Source of the DNA: Torpedo marmorata
Lineage: Eukaryota
DNA length: 64,000 bases
Direction of reading: 5' to 3'
Assembly (NCBI GenBank): GCA_977017645.1
Contig: OZ360237.1
Span: 13,764,001-13,828,000 of the forward strand
Below are positions 43,416 through 63,841 of this stretch, in pieces (position 1 is the first letter of the stretch; each line of letters starts with the position of its first letter). The notes beneath the pieces were generated by a model. It did no database searches and was not told the origin of the DNA. It was given only the letters and a program-made list of their open reading frames with translations. The position numbers and the translations under genes were made by a program.

Positions 43416-44094
43416 TTGGCTGGGTTTACCTTGGTACAGAGGAGGTGGAGCAGGTTATTGAGGTATACATATAAATCAGAACAATATAGAGAGAGCAAAT
43501 GGTAGGGATCCTTACACCACCATGTCAAAACTGAAGATATATGTTTAGAAAAAGGAGGAAGTGATTTAGAAGAGATCTGAGGAAGATTTCTTTTCCACCT
43601 GGAGGATAGCTGGAATGTAAATACATGTCTGAGAGGCTGGTGGAAAGCAGGGACTCCCAAAACACAAAGTATTTCGATTGCCTTGGCATAAAAAGCCATA
43701 GACCAAGTGCTGGTAAATGAGATGAGTGTAGATGGGCAATTGGTGGTTGGCATGGACACTACTTAACCAACCCATATCTTTTCTGAGAGTCCTTAACCCT
43801 TCTTGACAACTTACCTCATACCTATCTGTGTACAATCCACAAATTTATCAATTATATATTTGGTTCCTTCATCCAAACTATTTATAATAATTGTAAAAAG
43901 TTGAGCCCCAACACTGATCACATGTTACAACTTCAACCAGAAAAAGCCCATTTTATGCACTCTTCTATTAGCCAGCCAAAGTTCCATCCATGCCAGTATG
44001 TTGTCTCCTAACCAACACCATGAGCTTTTACTATTCACAATCATCTTTGAAGCAGCACTGTAAGAGCCGTAGGCTCGTTAACTTACCATTGTTG

Positions 44095-44371
44095 CGGCGC
44101 TCCGATGTCTCGTCGGGCCTTGGAGCGCTCGCGTAGTTCGGTGGGCCGTCCTCGGAGCGCTCCTAGGCCACGTCGGGCCATTGAGCGCTCGCGTTGTTCG
44201 CTGGGCCGTCCTCGGAGCGCTCCGAGGCCACGTCGGGCCTTGGAGCGCTTGCGTTGTTCTGTGGGCCGTCGTCGGCCCGTTCTTTGATATGCGCATGCGC
44301 GGGAGTGCCGACGGGCGCATGCGCAGTATGGAGTGACGTCATTGTGCGCGTGGGAGGCTGGGAGTTGTAGT
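44095..44371 (+). promoter_or_regulatory. LTR U3 CpG-rich promoter: 3 x 60-bp repeats, two NRF1-type sites, CRE, ZNF143/THAP11-type motif (duplicated in the 3' LTR)
   Basis: GCGCATGCGC at 44291-44300 and 44315-44324; TGACGTCA 44334-44341; ACTACAACTCCCAGC on the reverse strand at 44357-44371. Confidence 0.7.
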
Positions 44372-45195
44372 ATGCGCGGGGTAGGATGCGCAGAGCCATT
44401 AGAGAGAGATAGAGAAGGAAAGGAAAAGATGTATGGAGGGTGAGTCTGGTCTCCACATCTTTATTGACCGTTTTATATCGTTTTATAATGTTTTTATAAC
44501 TTCAACATCATCTACAGTGTTTCATATCGTTTTGGAATTGTTTAAGGAATAATTTAAAGGAACTCATCATACATCGTTTACAATAACTGTTTATATTAAA
44601 GTCATTGAAGATTACTGCAAGTCATGTGTGAAAATAAAGGTTTTGAACATATTGGACTTTGTTAGTAAATTAATTAAAACGCGTCAAAAGCAAGGACCAC
44701 ACTTAGCCTCCAGGTGACTATTGGTGGAGCGAAGTCACCGTTACTTATAGTCAATAAAGGGCTGGCTGTTTGGAACAGAAGTTTGAAAGAAAGAAGATAG
44801 AAAAAACTCTCTGTGCTTTGGACTGATATAAATTGGTGGCCATTTTGGAGTTGCCTCGAGTTGGGGGCAGTTTGTAATCCACATCCATCTGCCATGAATA
44901 ACAGCCAGAGAGGGATTTAAAGCTTCAAATCTTATAATAAAGTGTCCTATAAATACGTTGGAGAAACTATTTTTGGAAAATCAGTGATATTAGTGACGGA
45001 TGTTGTGGTTGAAACTCGTTTAAGGATTGCAGCACATTACAGTCATTAGAAGTGGTAGGCATAAGTCTGTGGACTCCTTCTGTGTATCTTTAGCAAGTAA
45101 GAACACAGATTGGAATTGCTGCCGCTGGTCCATTGGGGACTGTTGTTTGACTAGTGTTGTGTATGCTTGAAGGAAAGAGGAACAAGACGAGTAAA

Positions 45196-48100
45196 ATGGC
45201 CGCAGCAGCCACTGATACAGCAGCTACTGATTTATCAGCAGCTGACGCAGCAACCGCTGATGTTGCTGTTGAGGACCAACGTATTGAAGACATGAAGGTT
45301 GCGGATATTAAAGAAGAATTGAAGCGACTGAAAAAGGACATAAGTGGAAATAAAAAGGTTCTTATTGAAAGATTGAAGCAGGCAAAGGATGAAGAGGCAG
45401 CTTTATTAGTGGAACAAGAAGATAACTTGGAAATGGCTGAAATTGTATCAACAAATGATGAACAATTTGAATTGGATAAAGAGGTAAGTATGAAGACAAC
45501 ATATGAACTGCAGGACGAAATACAAGCAAGTGACAGTGTCTCAAATGCTGAAAGCAGGAGAAGCAAAAGAAGTTCTGGTTCGAGCTCCAGAGTTTCTCGT
45601 ATTTCAAGTTCTACATCGTCACGTACAAAGATTGAAGTTGACTTGGCCGCTCTTCTTGCACAACAAAAAACGCTTAAGGATAAATTTATATTAGAACAAG
45701 AAGAGGAACAACTAAGACAAAAGGAGGAGCAGCTAAGACAAAATGAGGAGCAGCTAAAGGAGCAGCTAAGACAAAATGAGGAGCAGCTAAAGGAGCAGCT
45801 AAGACAAAATGAGAAGAAGCTAAAGGAGCAGCTAAGACAAGAGGAGGAGCAGCTAAAGGAGCAGCTAAGACAAAAGGAGGAGCAGCTAAGACAAAATGAG
45901 AAGCAGCTAAAGGAGCAGCTAAGACAAAAGGAGGAGCAGCTAAGACGAGAGAAGGAGCAGCTAAGGCAGAGAAAAGAACTGCAGGAGCTGGAAGCAAACA
46001 TTGCTATTGCCAAGGCAAAAAAGAAAGCAACAGAAGGCTCAATGGTATCTGGTGCTAGCAGTAAATCATCTAAATTATCTGATAATAAAAGGTCATATTT
46101 AAAAAAGGAGTCACAGGAAAAGAAACCAACCAAAAGGATAGATATTTTAGAACCAAGGATACAAAACTTACATATACAAGGACAAACCTTTCAAGAGCAT
46201 ATTGGTATCGAGTCACATGTACCAATGATAACATCTGAAAGCAAAGCTGCGGATTGGGTTCGGTCGAACGAAGTAGCTTCTTTGTTATGTGAGTCAAGCA
46301 TCAGAAATATGGAAGAAACTATACCAGTAAGGTATCCAGATACATTGCATGCAACAAGAAACAGTGAACAGAGCAATGTATTGTCATCCAAGGAAAGACA
46401 AAATGAAATTGCTGCATCATTGTTTCAGTTACAGTCTCTCTCTTCTTTACCCAAGAAAGAGATACAAACTTTTGATGGTGATCCACTTCAATATCAATCG
46501 TTTATGAGATCTTTCAAACGCAATATTGAAGATAAATGCCAAGATCGAGATGAATGTCTTTATTATTTGGAAATGTTCACAAAGGGACATCCAAAAGAAC
46601 TGGTTAAAAGTTGTAACCAAATGTCTTCAGGAAGAGGATTAGACAAAGCTAAGGCTTTATTGGAACAATATTTTGGCAACAAACATCGAATTGCTTTAGC
46701 TTATATGGATAAAGCTCTTAAATGGACATCAATAAAACAAAATGATGTAAAGGCTTTGCAAGAATATACTTTGTTTTTAAGAGGATGTTGTAATGCTATG
46801 GAAGAAATCGATGGTATTCGTGAGCTTGATGTGCATAGTAATATGCGAATCATTTTAGAAAAATTACCTTACAAGGTATGGGATAGATGGAGAAATTTGG
46901 CTTGTGATTTACAAGTAAATTATGGTCGAAGAATTACTTTAAAGGATTTGGTAAATTTTCTTGAACGACAAGTGTATGTTGAAACAGATCCACTATATGG
47001 AAATACCAGAGATAATTCAATGAGCAAAGATGTAAGGAAGTCTAATTCACAGTCTAGTCCGAAAGTGAAAAGGAGTACTTTTGCTACTAATGTGCAAGTT
47101 ATAAGTAAAGAAAAGGACAAAATAAATAAGGAAAAGGAAAGTTTGCCTAATGAAAAGAGTTGTTTGTTCTGTAAAGGTGGACATGCTTTGGAAATGTGTT
47201 TACAATTGGAAAGGAAGGAACATAAAGAAAGGATCGCTTTCTTAAAGGAAAATGGAATATGTTTTAGCTGTCTGTGTAAAGGGCACATCAGTAAAAACTG
47301 CGAGAAGCAAATTAATTGTGACATATGCAATTTTAAACATCCTAGAATTTTGCATGTCCATAACAGAAACAAGGAATTGGAAAAGGAGCAAACAGAAACA
47401 AAGGAAACAACAGAAAATAATGTTATAACCTCGGTTCAGACAAGTGGTCTTACTGGGGCCGGGGTGAATAACTGCAAACTTTCAATAGTGCCTGTACAAG
47501 TTAAGGCCAAGAAAGGGGATGCAATAGTAAAAACATATGCATTTCTAGACCCAGGTAGCACTGCATCTTTTTGCACGGAAGGACTAATGAATAAACTTAA
47601 TATTCAAGGAAGAAAATCAAGAATTATGTTAAAAACCATGGGACAAGAAAAGGTTGTTGAAACTAACATTGTTTCAGGCTTAGAGGTTGCTGGATTGGAT
47701 GACAAAAAATTTTGTGATCTTCCAAGTGTATATACTCAGAAGACTATGCCTGTGAACGAAGGAAATATTCCTCATCAAAGTGATATCCATCATTTAGCTT
47801 ATCTGTGGAAGGTTTATTTACCTGAAATTAATTCTGAGATAGAAATGCTGATTGGTTCAGATGTGCCAAAGGTTTTGGTACCAAAAGAAGTAATAGAAAG
47901 TAAAAGGAATGGACCTTACGCTATTAGAACCATACTTGGTTGGGCAATCAATGGACCAATGGAAAGAAATAATGATATTGCTCAGGCACAGGTAGCGATA
48001 AATGTTAATAAAATTTCAATTGAGAAAGTTGAAGAGTTAAGAGAAGAGCAAAAAACCGTGAATAAGAAAATCACTTATGAAGAAAAGAAAACAGATCAAT

Positions 48101-48942
48101 GTGAAAATAAATCAATGGTATTTAAAACAACATTGAAGGAATTAATTTCGTCAGAAATGGATGAAAGTGAAGTGTTAGAGGATGAAAGTGAAGTATTAAA
48201 AGATGTTGCAAATAATACTATTGATCATTCATGTGTAATTGAATCAGATACAGGAATAAAACAAGTGACTGAAAACAAATCTGAATGTAGATTTTGTAGT
48301 TCAGAGATTACAACAGACAAAGCTAATGAAGAAATATTACAATGTGATGTAAAACTGGAAAACACAGAAAATTGTGCTGATGGAATAAAGAATAATGTGA
48401 ATGATAATTCAATGCAATTGAATCCAGAGAACAAAATGTTGAAAGGGGAATTGGAAATATTAGATAATCAAGAAAACAGTAAACAGAAAGATTTAATTGT
48501 AAGTAAAACTCGCAAAGTCAGAAAGCAGAAGAAAAGAATAACTGCTGAAGAAATGAATACAGTTATCGAAGAAAGAGATTCAGCATTATCAAAATGTAAA
48601 AGGTTGGAGGAAGAGATTAATGTTTTAAAAGAGAACAAGTTATTGGTTAATAACACAAAACAGTTGACTTTAAAAACCAATCAAGAATGTAAATTGAATG
48701 TTCAACAATTAACAATGCAGAAAGAATGTGATATTGCATTGCAGAAATGTAACAAACAAGATGAAGAAATAAAAAAATTTCAAGTTTGTCGCGACAGGAT
48801 TGACAATAGAAATATCAATGTACTATATGATATTTTGACTTCAGATCAAATTATTAATTTCTCGGAAGGAGCTGAGACTGAATTGAAAGTTGCAAAATTG
48901 GATTTAGAATTGCAGGAAAGAGCCATAGAAACCAGTGGTTAA
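45196..48942 (+). CDS. Intact ~1248-aa chimeric Gag-protease: SAP domain, coiled-coil repeats, BEL Gag, zinc knuckles, aspartic protease, host-like coiled-coil tail
   Basis: Uninterrupted ORF; likely start aaaATGg at 45196; CLFCKGGHALEMC / CFSCLCKGHISKNC / CDICNFKHPRILH; no RT YxDD or integrase DDE seen. Confidence 0.88.
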   Translation: MAAAATDTAATDLSAADAATADVAVEDQRIEDMKVADIKEELKRLKKDISGNKKVLIERLKQAKDEEAALLVEQEDNLEMAEIVSTNDEQFELDKEVSMKTTYELQDEIQASDSVSNAESRRSKRSSGSSSRVSRISSSTSSRTKIEVDLAALLAQQKTLKDKFILEQEEEQLRQKEEQLRQNEEQLKEQLRQNEEQLKEQLRQNEKKLKEQLRQEEEQLKEQLRQKEEQLRQNEKQLKEQLRQKEEQLRREKEQLRQRKELQELEANIAIAKAKKKATEGSMVSGASSKSSKLSDNKRSYLKKESQEKKPTKRIDILEPRIQNLHIQGQTFQEHIGIESHVPMITSESKAADWVRSNEVASLLCESSIRNMEETIPVRYPDTLHATRNSEQSNVLSSKERQNEIAASLFQLQSLSSLPKKEIQTFDGDPLQYQSFMRSFKRNIEDKCQDRDECLYYLEMFTKGHPKELVKSCNQMSSGRGLDKAKALLEQYFGNKHRIALAYMDKALKWTSIKQNDVKALQEYTLFLRGCCNAMEEIDGIRELDVHSNMRIILEKLPYKVWDRWRNLACDLQVNYGRRITLKDLVNFLERQVYVETDPLYGNTRDNSMSKDVRKSNSQSSPKVKRSTFATNVQVISKEKDKINKEKESLPNEKSCLFCKGGHALEMCLQLERKEHKERIAFLKENGICFSCLCKGHISKNCEKQINCDICNFKHPRILHVHNRNKELEKEQTETKETTENNVITSVQTSGLTGAGVNNCKLSIVPVQVKAKKGDAIVKTYAFLDPGSTASFCTEGLMNKLNIQGRKSRIMLKTMGQEKVVETNIVSGLEVAGLDDKKFCDLPSVYTQKTMPVNEGNIPHQSDIHHLAYLWKVYLPEINSEIEMLIGSDVPKVLVPKEVIESKRNGPYAIRTILGWAINGPMERNNDIAQAQVAINVNKISIEKVEELREEQKTVNKKITYEEKKTDQCENKSMVFKTTLKELISSEMDESEVLEDESEVLKDVANNTIDHSCVIESDTGIKQVTENKSECRFCSSEITTDKANEEILQCDVKLENTENCADGIKNNVNDNSMQLNPENKMLKGELEILDNQENSKQKDLIVSKTRKVRKQKKRITAEEMNTVIEERDSALSKCKRLEEEINVLKENKLLVNNTKQLTLKTNQECKLNVQQLTMQKECDIALQKCNKQDEEIKKFQVCRDRIDNRNINVLYDILTSDQIINFSEGAETELKVAKLDLELQERAIETSG

Positions 48943-50426
48943 ACAGACCTGTTTAAAATCGAAAGAATCAGATAAATATTCAAATTCTAATTCTAAGAGT
49001 TTAAATTCTTCACATGAGAAGTGGAATACTGAAGAAAGGAATAAAGTGAAACGACGTGCTGAAGAAGTGCCTTGTGTTAAATTCAAAAGAAAAACTGTAT
49101 CTATTTTATCTGAGGAGGATTTGAGGTTTACTGGTTAACGTTTTGACTCGGATTGTGAAGATGGAAGAACTTTAAAGAGACATTGTGATTGTTATGGATG
49201 GTTCAACTTCAAGAAATTCCTGGTTACTTGGAAAAGATTATTGAGACTTTTCAAGACAAAGAGGACTTGTGCGTCAAGTGCGAATTAAAGCTAAGACTGG
49301 TTTTCTAAACAGACCTATTAACCAGGTCTGTCTTTTGTTGGAGACAGAGGAACTTTGATAAATAGAAACTGACTTTATTTGTTATTGTATATTTCACAGG
49401 TTACAGACTTTTGTTGAATCAGAGTTATGGTAAACTCTAGATTTATGAAGAAGGAAGAAAGAAGATTTGTATTGTTTTGAATGTTATGGTTATTATTATT
49501 TATAGTGTAATTATTATTCAAGACATTACGTCTAATTATAATAATTAGGGGCCGGTGTAAGAGCCGTAGGCTCGTTAACTTACCATTGTTGCGGCGCTCC
49601 GATGTCTCGTCGGGCCTTGGAGCGCTCGCGTAGTTCGGTGGGCCGTCCTCGGAGCGCTCCTAGGCCACGTCGGGCCATTGAGCGCTCGCGTTGTTCGCTG
49701 GGCCGTCCTCGGAGCGCTCCGAGGCCACGTCGGGCCTTGGAGCGCTTGCGTTGTTCTGTGGGCCGTCGTCGGCCCGTTCTTTGATATGCGCATGCGCGGG
49801 AGTGCCGACGGGCGCATGCGCAGTATGGAGTGACGTCATTGTGCGCGTGGGAGGCTGGGAGTTGTAGTATGCGCGGGGTAGGATGCGCAGAGCCATTAGA
49901 GAGAGATAGAGAAGGAAAGGAAAAGATGTATGGAGGGTGAGTCTGGTCTCCACATCTTTATTGACCGTTTTATATCGTTTTATAATGTTTTTATAACTTC
50001 AACATCATCTACAGTGTTTCATATCGTTTTGGAATTGTTTAAGGAATAATTTAAAGGAACTCATCATACATCGTTTACAATAACTGTTTATATTAAAGTC
50101 ATTGAAGATTACTGCAAGTCATGTGTGAAAATAAAGGTTTTGAACATATTGGACTTTGTTAGTAAATTAATTAAAACGCGTCAAAAGCAAGGACCACACT
50201 TAGCCTCCAGGTGACTATTGGTGGAGCGAAGTCACCGTTACTTATACTTATCAAATGCTTTCTGGAAATCTTATTGTAGTACATCAACTGGTTCCATTTA
50301 TCCACAGAATTTACTTCAAAGTAGTACAACAAAGAAAATCAAGCACAATTTCCCTTTCATTAAACTCTGTTTAATCTTGCTGAATACCTTGAATTTTTCT
50401 AGTACCTTGCTGTAACTTTGCTAATT

Positions 50427-58644: not shown

Positions 58645-61600
58645 TGTGGTTGAACGCGGTACTGCGGGTATGTCCGGCCATGTCTGGACATGTCCTAAAG
58701 TAAAACACGAAAATCTGCAGACACCGTGGTTGAAGTAAAAAACACAAATCCTGGAGAACTCAGCAGGTCAAACAGTGTCTTTTATGTAGCAAAGGTAGAA
58801 ATACATAACCGACGTTTCGGGCTTGAGCCCTTCATCAAAGTATGAGAAAATGCCGGCAGGCGTCCGAACAAAGGAGTGAGGGGGGGAAGTGGGGGGGTGT
58901 GGCAAAGGCAGGAGATGATAGGTGGAGAAAGGAGGGAGGGGACAGCAGCAAAGAGGGGGAGGAGGGATGGCTGGGTAGGTGGGAAAAAACAGGAAGGACA
59001 GGTGAGGGGGGAGGGGAAGGAAACGACAAGCAGGTTTAGTGGAAAGCAGAAAAGTCAATGTTAATGCCATCTGGCTGGAGAGTGCCCAGATGGAAAATGA
59101 GATGTTGTTCCTCCAATTTGCGGGTAGTCTGGGTGGGATAGTACATAAGGCCATGGACAGACATGTGAGTGTGGGAGTGTGACTCGGAATTGAAATGGTT
59201 GGCTACTGGGAGGTCGCTGTTGTTGCGGACGGAGAGGAGGTGCTCAGCAAAGCGATCTCCCAATCTACGACCAGTCTCTCCGATGAAGGGAAAGCCACAA
59301 AGGCAGCACTGGATGCAGTAAATAACTTCTCTGGATGTACAAGTGAACATGTCCTCACTGGCTCACCGGGCTAACCTGTAGCCCCTCCCCATTACATCCC
59401 CTAATAAAGGCTGAGAGCCATAGTCTCCTCCCCTATACCTGCCTTGGAAGTGAGCCAGCAGCATGTTGAGGCATGCTCGAACTTTCTGATCAACAAAGCC
59501 TTTGATCACTTTCTTCATGTCTGCAAGTGGTCATTGATCGCGCTACAATTTATTGATCAGAATTTTAAGTGCCATGGAGAAGGCAATTAGACTGGAGAAG
59601 CTGGACACCAACCCCAAGGAACCAGAGGCCTCCGTAAAGTTCGATATGTGCCTACATTGCTTGGCCTATCCGAGGCGCCACGATATCACAACCGACCCGG
59701 ATAAGTACGATCTGCTCTTCGCAGCGGTGGGCCACAGAGCGTACCAAATTATCCGAGACTGCACCGAATATGAAGAGGCAATGGCTCTACTTCGACAACA
59801 ATACAGAGCCCCGGCGAACGCCATATACGCACGCTTCCAGCTGGGCTCCCGACACCAGGGTCCTGGTGAGTCAGTAGACGAGTTCGTGAGGGCCATGCGG
59901 GAGCTGGGATGAGCTTGCGGGTACCGGGACGTGAGCGCGGTGCTCTACCAAGAGGAGCATCCGCGATGGGCTCGTCGCGGGCTTCCGCTCCCAACACATA
60001 AGGGAGCGACTCCTGGAGGAAGGAGATCGGTCCCTCCAGGTAGTGGTGCAGATGGCCCGAGCGATGGAGACGGCTCAAAAGAACGTGGAGGCCTACTCAG
60101 AGGGCACGCGGCCACCAGGTGGGGAGAACGGGCGGCGCCATCTTGGAACTCGGGGCCCCTGACTGCAGCGGCCACAGCCGACCACGCGAGGTGCAACTAC
60201 TGCGGCCAAAGTAGACACCCGTGGAAGTACTGTCCGGCCCGTAGCGCAACCTGCTCAAACTGCCAGAGGAAGGGACATTATGCCAGAGTATGTCGCTCCA
60301 AGCCCCACTCCAGCAGTGCCGCATGCGGACCGCGACTCTCCTCGCCATCTTGGACCCACCCACTTCCGCCGTCATTTCCGGCTGCCGAAAATCGAGCTTC
60401 CAGAATAGGGGCGCAACAAAGAGGACAGACGTCACTTCCTGCTTCTTCTCCGGACTCAACCACGTACGATCCATGGGTGCGGCCATCTTCACGACCTCCC
60501 GGGCGGCCATCTTGGCGGCAGCCGCCCCGAAACAGCAGCAGCGACTCGGATGGTGAGCTGACGCTGGCGTCCATCGTGCTGGACCAAGGGAGACCACACC
60601 AGCTGGAGCGATCGATGATGGACGTTGAGGTAAACGGTCACTCCACTGGCTGCCTGTTCGACACGGGAAGCACTGAGAGCTTCATACACCCGGGCACTGC
60701 CGAGCGTTATTCCTCGACTGTGTCCCCAGCCAAAGGAAAGGTAGCACTAGCCTCCAAATCCCTCTCTGTGGAAATCCGTGGAAGCTGCACCGTGACCCTA
60801 ACTGTGGGGGGCACCAATTATAAGAATTTTAAACTGCTGGTAATGCCCCACCTCTGCGCACCCGTCATATTGGGGCTAGATTTCCAGTGCCAGTTTAAAG
60901 GGGTGCTGATGAACTCTGATGGGCCCCACCCCCCACTCACCGTCACTAATAACCAGTACTGGGAGGCCCGGCCCATTCCCCAGAGGAGGCCCAATCACAC
61001 GATTGAAAGCCGGGCTGGGTACCTGACCTGCGGACTAACCACCCTCCGGGTCCCTCCGCCCCCGCTGTTCCAAAACCTCACCCCGGACTGCAAAACCGAT
61101 TGCTATTAAGAGCAGGCGATACAGCCCCGGGGACAGAAAATTCATTAAAACGGAGGTGGAGCGGCTGCGGGAGGAGGGCATTATATAGCCAAGCAATAGT
61201 CCCTGGAGGGCGCAAGTAGTGGTGGTGAAGAGTGGGGAGAAACATCGTATGGTCATTGATTACAGTCAGACCATCAACCAGTTCACCTTACTGGACGCCT
61301 ACCCTTTGCCCTGCATATCGGAGATGGTAAATGAGATCGCCAAGTACAGGGATTTTTCGACCATAAACCTAAAATCGGCGTACCACCAAATCCCGATTCA
61401 CCCAAAAGACCAGCTGTACACGGCATTTGAGGCCAACGGCCGACTCTACCATTTCCTGTGGGTCCCATTCGGTCTCACGAATGGGGTGTCAGTGTTCCAA
61501 AGGGAAATGGACCGCATGGTGGATGACAATAAGCTGAAGGCTACGTTTCCATACTTGGACAATGTCACCATCTGCAGCCATGACCAAAAGGAGCACAACG

Positions 61601-63841
61601 AGAACCTGCAGAGGTTTCTGGCCACCGCAAAGACACTCAACCTCACATATAATGAGAAAAAGTGTGTCCTCAGCACCAAAAGGCTGGCAATCCTGGGGTA
61701 CGTGGTGGAGCATGGGGCTATCGCCCCCAACCCTGAGCGTATGCGCCCCCTACTGGAATTACCCTTGCCACAGAACACCAAGCCTTTAAAAAGGTGCCTG
61801 GGGCTTTTCTTCTATTATGCCCAGTGGATCCCTAACTATGCGGACAAGGCCCAACCTCTAGTGAGAACCATGACTTTTCCCCCATCGGCGGAGGCCCGTA
61901 AGGCTTTCCAGGGCATCAGAGGCGAGATTGCCAAGGCGGGAATGCACGCCATTGATGAATCCATCTCTTTCCAAGTGGAAAGTGATGCCTCTGCCTTCGC
62001 CCTGGCCGCCACGCTGAACCAAGCAGGCAGGCTAGTCGCATTTTTTTCCCGTACCCTCCAAGGCCCCGAACGCAGGCACTCCGCCATCGAGAAGGAGGAA
62101 CAGGCTATAGTGGAGGCAGTGCATCACTGGAGGGACTACTTGGCCAGCAGACCATTCACCCTGCTGACGGACTAGAGAGCCGTTGCGTTCATGTTTAACA
62201 ATAAACAGCGGGGTAAGATCAAAAATGACAAAATCATGAGGTGGAGAATTGAGCTGTCCACCTACAATTATGAAATATGGTACTGGCCGGGTAAGCTCAA
62301 TGAGCCACCCGATGCCCTGTCCAGGGGAACCTGCGTCAGGGTGCAAGTTGATCGCCTCCAGGCCCTCCACGATAGCCTCTGCCATCCTGGGGTCACGAGG
62401 CTCTACCATTTTGTGAGAGCCCGGAACCTTCCCTACTCAGTGGAGGAAGTAAGGGAGCTGACTCACAATTGCCAGGTCTGTGCCGAATGCAAGCCTCAAT
62501 TTTACAGACCGGATAGAGCTCAACTGATCAAAGCCACTCACCCTTTTGAACATCTCAGCATTGACTTCAAGGGGCCCCTCCCGTCCACGAATCGGAACTC
62601 CTACTTCCTGAACATCGTGGACGAGTACTCACGTTTCCCATTCGCCATCCCCTGCCCGGATATGACTACATCCACGGTCATTAAAGCACTCCGCTCAGTA
62701 TTCACTCTGTTTGGATAACCTAGTTACGTTCATAGTGACCGGGGATCTGCTTTCATGAGTGAGGAGTTGCGGCAATACTTTGTTTCAAGGGGCATAGCTA
62801 CGAGCAGAACCACCAGCTACAACCCCCACGGGAACGGGCAGGTGGAAAGGGAGAATGGTACGATCTGGAGGGCAGTCCTTTTGGCCCTCAAGTCGAAAGG
62901 GATGCCCGTATCCCAGTGGCAAGAGGTCCTCCCAGATGCGCTGCATGCTACCAGGTCCCTACTCTGCACGGCCACCAATGCTACACCCCACGAAAAATTG
63001 TTCTCCTTCCCGAGGAGATCGGCGTCGGGAACCACGCTGCCAGTCTGGCTGACGACCCCAGGGCCGCTGCTTCTTCGGAAGCACGTTAGGACTCATAAGG
63101 CGGACCCACTGGTCGAGGAAGTGCATCTCCTGCATGCCAACCCCCAGTATGCACTGGTAAGGTACCCGGACGGACGGGACGATACAGTGTCCATCCGGGA
63201 TCTGGCGCAAGCGGGGGATCTGGCGCAAGCGGGGGCCCCGGCACGGGAGGTGCACCCGATATCCCCAGTCGGCCCCAGGAATCACCCTGACAAATGAAAT
63301 GGGGATCCCACCCCCAAGACGACCCCCCGATTGTTCCCCTTTAAGTGTGTGTCCCTCCCCACTCTTACCAATAAATTCACCACCCCCTTCGGACCCAGGA
63401 CACACAGAAACAGTTCAGCCATCCGACAGCCAGCAGGTCGAACACGACACCGCTCAGCTTGATCCGAAGATACAGCCAGTACTTCGGAGATCTCAGCGCG
63501 AAAGAAAACCACCGGAGCGGCTGAACCTATGAGACTATGAACTGTATGGACATTGCCCTGCGTCACTCCGCCGGACTTTATTTAAAAAAAGAGTGAATGT
63601 GGTGGAACGCGGTACTGCGGGCATGTCCGGACATGTCTGGACATGACCTCACTGGCTCACCGGGCTAACCTGTAGCCCCTCCCCATTACATCCCCTAATA
63701 AAGGCTGAGAGCCATAGTCTCATCCCCTATACCTGCCTTGGAAGTGAGCCAGCAGCATGTAGAGGCATGCTCGAACTTTCTGATTAATAAAGCCTTTGAT
63801 CACTTTGTTCGTGTCTGTAAGTGGTCATTGATCGTGCTACA
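58645..63841 (+). mobile_element. Full-length degenerate Gypsy LTR retrotransposon (5' LTR 58645-59547 interrupted by Penelope; 3' LTR 63598-63841)
   Basis: gag with two CCHC knuckles, FDTGS protease, RT (PFGL, YLDN), RNaseH (SDAS), integrase (HPG, DFKGP, GQVER); several stops and frameshifts; PPT aaaaaaagagtgaa; flanks tactg/cgctg are at best an imperfect TSD. Confidence 0.94.
58697..59346 (-). mobile_element. Penelope-like element inserted in the Gypsy 5' LTR
   Basis: GIY-YIG ORF 59036-59350; duplication acatgtcct at 58688-58696 and 59347-59355. Confidence 0.92.

Follow-up and report, generated by a model that had tools for sequence, protein, structure and literature searches.

The self-primer of Tf1 is 11 nt long, and a primer site for the 3' end of a tRNA must begin with TGG because mature tRNAs all end in CCA. 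Self-priming is described for Tf1/sushi elements, Tj1, Tcn1 and TAR in the accessible sections of the relevant literature (PMC6317226, PMC4600332, PMC10085805, PMC5341516, PMC11042837, PMC6934838, PMC5443660), according to which the primer of Tf1 and Tf2 is released by RT cleavage (PMC4600332, PMC10085805, PMC5341516). For the BEL/Pao superfamily, the ICTV profile of Belpaoviridae gives a tRNA-Arg or tRNA-Gly primer site and describes replication as poorly understood (PMC8742986). The available text of de la Chaux and Wagner (PMC3118150) does not mention primer, PBS, tRNA or priming, that of Copeland et al. (PMC554778) does not mention PBS, priming or tRNA, that of Thomas-Bulle et al. (PMC6238403) does not mention PBS, primer or intron, and the excerpts of PMC3601003 and PMC8220671 hold nothing on BEL priming. 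Within the partly accessible literature that was searched (Repbase and subscription journals lying outside the search), no report of BEL/Pao self-priming or of a primer built by splicing was found. Here we describe a BEL/Pao element from a 64,000-nucleotide stretch of the Torpedo marmorata genome (contig OZ360237.1, hereafter the window, within which all coordinates are counted), together with its relatives.

Identity and structure of the element

The element in the window is a non-autonomous BEL/Pao retrotransposon. It is bounded by two identical LTRs of 691 bp on the forward strand (5' LTR 44059-44749, 3' LTR 49556-50246; TG...TA), the second of which is preceded by a polypurine tract (AGGGGCCGG, 49547-49555, forward strand) that recurs in the same or a similar form before the 3' LTR of most relatives. 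The open reading frame (45151-48942, forward strand, 1263 aa from stop to stop) encodes a SAP domain, the BEL/Pao Gag and the protease, followed by an unrelated tail. The SAP domain opens Gag (45283-45384, Pfam E 3e-8), and direct reading of the translation reveals a triple Cys-His box (three motifs at residues 673-737 of P0001), a Gag motif described for BEL/Pao (accessible part of PMC554778). RT, RNase H and the integrase core are all absent from this copy, which keeps Gag, PR and a DUF5641 remnant of the integrase C-terminus (49245-49358, forward strand; PF18701, E=0.002, under the curated cut-off). The place of pol is taken by about 300 in-frame codons without Pfam match (about 48050-48942), and Gag also contains an expanding coiled-coil repeat made of 21/33-nt units (45683-45997). 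The tail region is 98-100% identical in the 40 scored matches (among 1,002 candidates), which marks the non-autonomous family as young.

In relatives that share the LTR, gag-pol runs without interruption over about 2,000 codons (PF05380, RVT_1, PF17921, rve, PF18701), and the Pao-type pol order PR-RT-RH-IN is present in full-length relatives. Over 714 aligned Gag-PR residues the window ORF shares 87% identity with the gag-pol of L038, in which PF05380, PF18701, PF17921 and RVT_1 are recognised. The named homologs come mostly from fishes, with one from a hemichordate; the scan found no relatives in viral contigs, and the Rfam search returned two matches only, both at chance level. Furthermore, no chromodomain was matched at E 0.01, which argues against membership of Tf1/sushi (Ty3/gypsy chromoviruses).

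The LTR end is fixed by sister insertions, since all 14 of those readable at both ends (19 were fetched, representing 20 loci, two of them from one tandem array) carry a 5-bp target-site duplication directly after ...TATA. LTRs, polypurine tract and target-site duplication, as in BEL/Pao, are present in the family, the duplication being read from sister insertions and not from the window copy, whose flanks differ (AGCAC at 44054-44058, CTTAT at 50247-50251) despite its identical LTRs, and which is possibly a recombinant or an irregular insertion.

Several features of the LTRs vary within the lineage. The LTR end differs by subfamily: the LTR of L049 ends in ...GTAATA and is followed by CTTATA as a 6-nt spacer, and in the window subfamily (44740-44749) CTTATA is itself the LTR end (spacer 0). 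Within the lineage, many LTRs terminate in TA and not in CA. U3 holds a 60-nt GC-rich repeat (44097-44282), the copy number of which varies among copies (LTR lengths 540-699 bp). Moreover, one locus (L212/L213, G000:C41:122034854-122053710) is a tandem array of the non-autonomous element, with single shared LTRs and a period of 5,378 bp, comparable to the tandem Tf1/Tf2 insertions described in the accessible part of PMC11042837. Elsewhere in the window, a Gypsy-order LTR element (59344-63841; PR, RT, RH, IN) also has no TGG past its 5' LTR. Its post-LTR sequence has a 10-nt complement (offset 5) in the 5' LTR, at 59484 and near the poly(A) signal; in the 3' LTR this complement is imperfect.

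The post-LTR site and its complement in the LTR

As the original prediction had it, the sequence adjoining the 5' LTR (GTCAATAAAG, 44750-44759, forward strand) lacks TGG and is the exact reverse complement of a segment inside the LTR (CTTTATTGAC, 44459-44468, forward strand, hereafter the arm; second copy at 49956-49965 in the 3' LTR), to which the G at 44760 opposite the T at 44458 adds the G:U pair it had allowed for. The arm is predicted to form the 3' part of a self-primer, with a cut after 44468. The AATAAA, likewise found where it had been placed (44633-44638, forward strand), is the likely poly(A) signal and lies 164 nt past the arm. Priming at the poly(A) site was considered and rejected for the lineage, in which the signal follows the arm by 53-178 nt in 16 of 19 intron-less elements. 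The 10-mer GTCAATAAAG has three matches in the window against 0.28 expected, one in each LTR and one at the post-LTR site. Shuffling of the 30 post-LTR bases yielded a 10-nt complement in 52 of 20,000 trials, none of the 673 internal 30-mers of the element reached one, and both motifs are kept in all 30 best-matching genomic copies (window included). The window duplex has only 10 bp and is AU-rich.

The comparison with host tRNAs, which the original prediction had named as a check, gave no long match in a set of 32 tRNA genes, taken from 30 own loci and covering 9 anticodons only: the best matches to the four sites compared spanned 5-6 nt along the whole tRNA and 1-2 nt at its 3' end. The stronger argument against a tRNA primer is that 30 site variants, unlike one another at 9/10 positions, follow their own LTRs.

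We assessed the compensatory covariation between site and LTR, which the original prediction had named as a check, in 36 elements: 32 metagenome clusters with junction and LTR (from a scan giving 79 loci of 51-76% identity, in 43 clusters at 90%, 11 of which lacked junction or arm) and four own elements. The pass rule took the longest perfect complement starting 0-6 nt past the LTR end, contiguous or donor/acceptor-split. The covariation holds: a perfect complement of at least 10 nt (10-15 nt) is found in the own LTR of 31/36 elements, being contiguous in 16 and present only across a GT-AG intron junction in 15. At the same threshold, shuffled sites gave 11 matches in 2,160 and the LTRs of other families 39 in 1,260, many of these 39 being between families that share a site, and the own LTR was the best partner in 29/36 elements (25 strictly). 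LTR ends had been set by eye, after the pairing had been seen, in 21/36; where they were set independently of the pairing (two copies, duplication or contig branch), 12/15 pass. The five misses of the automatic criterion are L034, where the 10 nt begin at offset 7; L065, with one mismatch in 13; L075, with 9 nt; L109, whose 10 nt are visible by eye but whose acceptor was filtered out; and L095/L099, whose donor half is mismatched in a single copy.

In the own genome, 40 loci were picked by gag or protease profiles, 11 of them without junction; the 29 readable junctions comprise 22 with a perfect complement of at least 10 nt, 3 with one mismatch in 12-15 and 4 without arm (including one where the fetched sequence ended early). 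The site variants matched there by their own LTR include GTCAATAAAG, GTCAATGAAA, GTCAATAAAAG, GTCAATAAAAA, GTCAATAGAAT, GTCAACAGAAAAT and ATTCAAAGAAAATAT, and the LTRs of families B and C, whose ends are fixed by duplications, have no blastn similarity to the window LTR. Across the 35 tabulated elements the sites start with 23 different 9-nt sequences, the spacer between LTR end and site measures 0-7 nt, and in all of them the duplex begins with GT or AT. Among 30 site variants, 9/10 positions vary, and a primer abutting the LTR (spacer 0) is peculiar to the window subfamily. Some family B copies have the primer site duplicated about 30 nt apart (L233:1820-1860, L048:2040-2080, element strand).

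TGG occurs at the site in 0/36 elements and in 0/29 readable own-genome junctions, so that the tRNA site of the ICTV description of BEL/Pao is missing; this is a deviation from that description, and the RT-based BEL/Pao identity is not in doubt. Moreover, a search of the own genome for a tRNA-primed BEL family (PF05585, PF03564) returned only the self-complementary lineage, including a fourth family, and thus supplied no negative control within that genome. We consider it very probable that these BEL/Pao elements are primed in a Tf1-like manner by their own 5' RNA; the covariation lends strong support to this core of the original prediction, the geometry of which is probably wrong (see below).

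An intron within the complement

The GT-AG intron that splits the complement in 15 of the 31 passing elements is 67-366 nt long in 14 (in the remaining one it spans contig ends). Its downstream exon contributes 4-7 nt, and in the unspliced sequence of these elements the best contiguous match is 5-9 nt. For instance, exon 1 of L101 ends in AATCG and exon 2 starts with TTTGAC, facing the site GTCAAACGATT; the corresponding exon ends are CACAGTTTT and TTGAAT in L129 (site ATTCAAAAAACTGTG), and AAATATCT and TCAAAC in L121 (site GTTTGAAGATATTT). In L113, which belongs to the L101 cluster, a 168-nt intron is missing exactly at the predicted ends, the contig representing either RNA or an intron-less copy. 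Because the complement exists only across the intron junction in these 15 elements, we infer that the pairing is an RNA event.

The branch of the window is intron-less: 18 intron-less families, together with L111 (outside the pairing test), fall on one side of the tree (SH-aLRT 96), a quick IQ-TREE reconstruction that is unrooted, has no true outgroup and does not fix the ancestral intron state. GG/GTGAGT at about 44438-44445 was considered as a splice donor in the window LTR; it lies in the strand that pairs and co-varies with U5 and was not treated as a donor. In the four contig runs compared, no GT-AG joint was listed over the window LTR, a result given no weight in either direction.

Predicted RNA start and helices

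The original prediction had placed the transcription start at about 44457-44459, just downstream of promoter motifs. No TATA-like motif lies upstream of the arm in the window LTR, and the position of the start is probably wrong: a helix between U5 and the segment upstream of the arm co-varies, and TATA-like motifs stand 53-76 nt before the 3' end of the arm in 5/19 relatives (they are absent in the window), and since both point to 44430-44435, the transcript is suggested to start there, about 25-30 nt upstream of 44459. These same patterns suggest a primer of about 35-40 nt, not 11. The helix, predicted in the MFE fold and by covariation, would join 44434-44453 to the U5 strand 44693-44712 (both forward strand), which would require the transcript to start at or before about 44434. 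It co-varies inside family A, and across 18 intron-less families the upstream segment pairs better with its own U5 than with those of other families (-21.7 versus -16.3 kcal/mol; 0/20,000 permutations). Scanned in 15-nt windows, the signal is present from -30 to 0 and absent from -35 upward, placing the helix 5-30 nt upstream of the arm. The own partner is the best one in only 5/18 intron-less families, one far control window reached p 0.02, and among 15 intron-bearing families the helix fails to reach significance (p 0.077). Furthermore, the primer duplex seems to extend beyond the arm, as the 14 nt before it pair with their own 12 nt past the site at -6.0 kcal/mol, versus -4.4 with those of other families (1/20,000 permutations as good, 35 elements).

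Folding also predicts a U5-terminal hairpin just 5' of the primer site (44713-44739, forward strand), and a stem of at least 7 bp ending no more than 10 nt from the LTR end occurs in 23/36 elements, versus 21% of shuffles and 9/35 upstream controls. A palindrome (ACGCGT, 44679-44684, forward strand) lies in U5, and a similar motif is found 29-88 nt before the LTR end in 13/36. The primer duplex is missing from the MFE fold of 44430-44790, the stability of which is not unusual (z -1.6); the folding energy of the whole region does not discriminate (mean fold z -0.54), and a stem of the Tf1 type, linking U5 to the 3' flank of the site, was not consistent across the elements.

A model for priming and its alternatives

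On the model that we favour, the transcript would begin about 25-30 nt upstream of 44459 and its 5' part would fold onto U5 and onto the primer site. By analogy with Tf1, the RNA would then be cut after 44468, here by an RT-RNase H that full-length relatives would provide in trans, and the freed fragment of about 35-40 nt would prime minus-strand DNA synthesis into U5. Once strand transfer had taken place, the 3' LTR copy would serve to restore whatever precedes the cut. Where relatives bear the intron, splicing of the 5' copy would put the primer together; the persistence of the intron could then be explained by its position, 4-7 nt upstream of the predicted cut and in a stretch of 5' RNA that would never be copied. 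The anatomy and the covariation are observed, whereas start site, folding, cleavage, extension and strand transfer are proposed by analogy with Tf1/Tf2. We regard it as fairly probable, with less assurance than we attach to self-priming as such, that in a widespread aquatic BEL/Pao lineage tRNA priming has given way to a self-primer which the host spliceosome builds from two exon ends within the LTR, so that splicing of the 5' LTR gates reverse transcription, and that the intron-less window branch relies on a capped leader of about 35-40 nt, which is cut only after folding onto U5.

The arm is present in both LTRs, and sequence alone cannot separate the copies, so that the partner of the site might instead be the arm belonging to the RNA's 3' LTR portion, or one in a second RNA of the particle, which would circularise the genome or donate the primer. 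We give this a small chance, as 15 elements need the spliced form, and a spliced 3' copy in the template RNA would strip the intron from the LTRs of the progeny, which have nevertheless kept it; nor does the arm lie at the poly(A) site, given the distance to the signal in the intron-less elements. A second RNA may still be the donor of the primer. A marginally smaller chance falls to the duplex being a leader structure, serving packaging, dimerisation or translation control, with priming left to something else. Further helices surround the duplex and the palindrome in U5 is conserved, as such a function might have it; yet the duplex starts 0-7 nt past the LTR end in all 35 elements, exactly where minus-strand priming must start, its first bases are invariably GT or AT, no other primer site is present, and the position of the intron fits a cut at the end of the duplex.

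Binding of the site by half a host tRNA or by another small RNA, with the LTR match being incidental, seems very improbable to us. Half-tRNA priming is known in Copia lineages (accessible part of PMC6317226), the tRNA comparison extended to 9 anticodons only, and the sites of some relatives begin with GTTCGAA, resembling the T-loop of tRNAs. A conserved host RNA would not, however, track sites that differ at 9/10 positions over 30 variants as their LTRs do; the best tRNA match is 5-6 nt, and chance is excluded as the source of the LTR match by the covariation test on 36 elements.

Should self-priming by the own 5' RNA hold, BEL/Pao would be the third LTR superfamily to have reached tRNA-independent priming, at odds with what ICTV describes for Belpaoviridae. 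Fragments from the 3' ends of tRNAs would then have no hold over such elements, and tools that demand a tRNA site would miss or misjudge them. Moreover, an element with an intron inside its primer would have its replication linked to host splicing, which would also explain how an intron survives in an LTR.

Comparison with known systems

The post-LTR complementarity is a real feature, and it very probably represents a known mechanism in a modified form, within a superfamily whose priming has been attributed to tRNA. With Belpaoviridae as defined by ICTV (PMC8742986), the lineage shares LTRs, a single gag-pol of the order Gag-PR-RT-RH-IN, a short PPT, a vertebrate host and, in the window family, the 5-bp duplication; it differs in that ICTV describes the family as tRNA-primed, whereas the window lineage is without TGG. 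Self-priming had already been proposed outside Tf1/sushi, for the plant TAR elements (Ty1/copia; Houba, Osr-1) and Tcn1, on the basis of a complement that begins 0-5 bp past the LTR and measures at least 10 bp, which is nearly the criterion used for our 36 elements; these are Copia or Gypsy elements, of plants, and the accessible part of the source mentions no intron-split primer (PMC6317226). The likeness to Tf1/Tf2/Tj1 and Tf1/sushi lies in the lack of a tRNA site, in a post-LTR site complementary to a segment of the LTR and in a U5 stem, here a predicted one, beside that site (accessible sections of PMC4600332, PMC10085805 and PMC5341516). On the other hand, Tf1/sushi elements are Ty3/gypsy chromoviruses, whereas the window lineage has BEL/Pao domains and no chromodomain match; the three-duplex 'pretzel' of Tf1 is not reproduced consistently in the BEL/Pao lineage, in which a different second helix (upstream/U5) was found, and in 15 BEL/Pao elements, unlike in Tf1/sushi, an intron splits the predicted primer.
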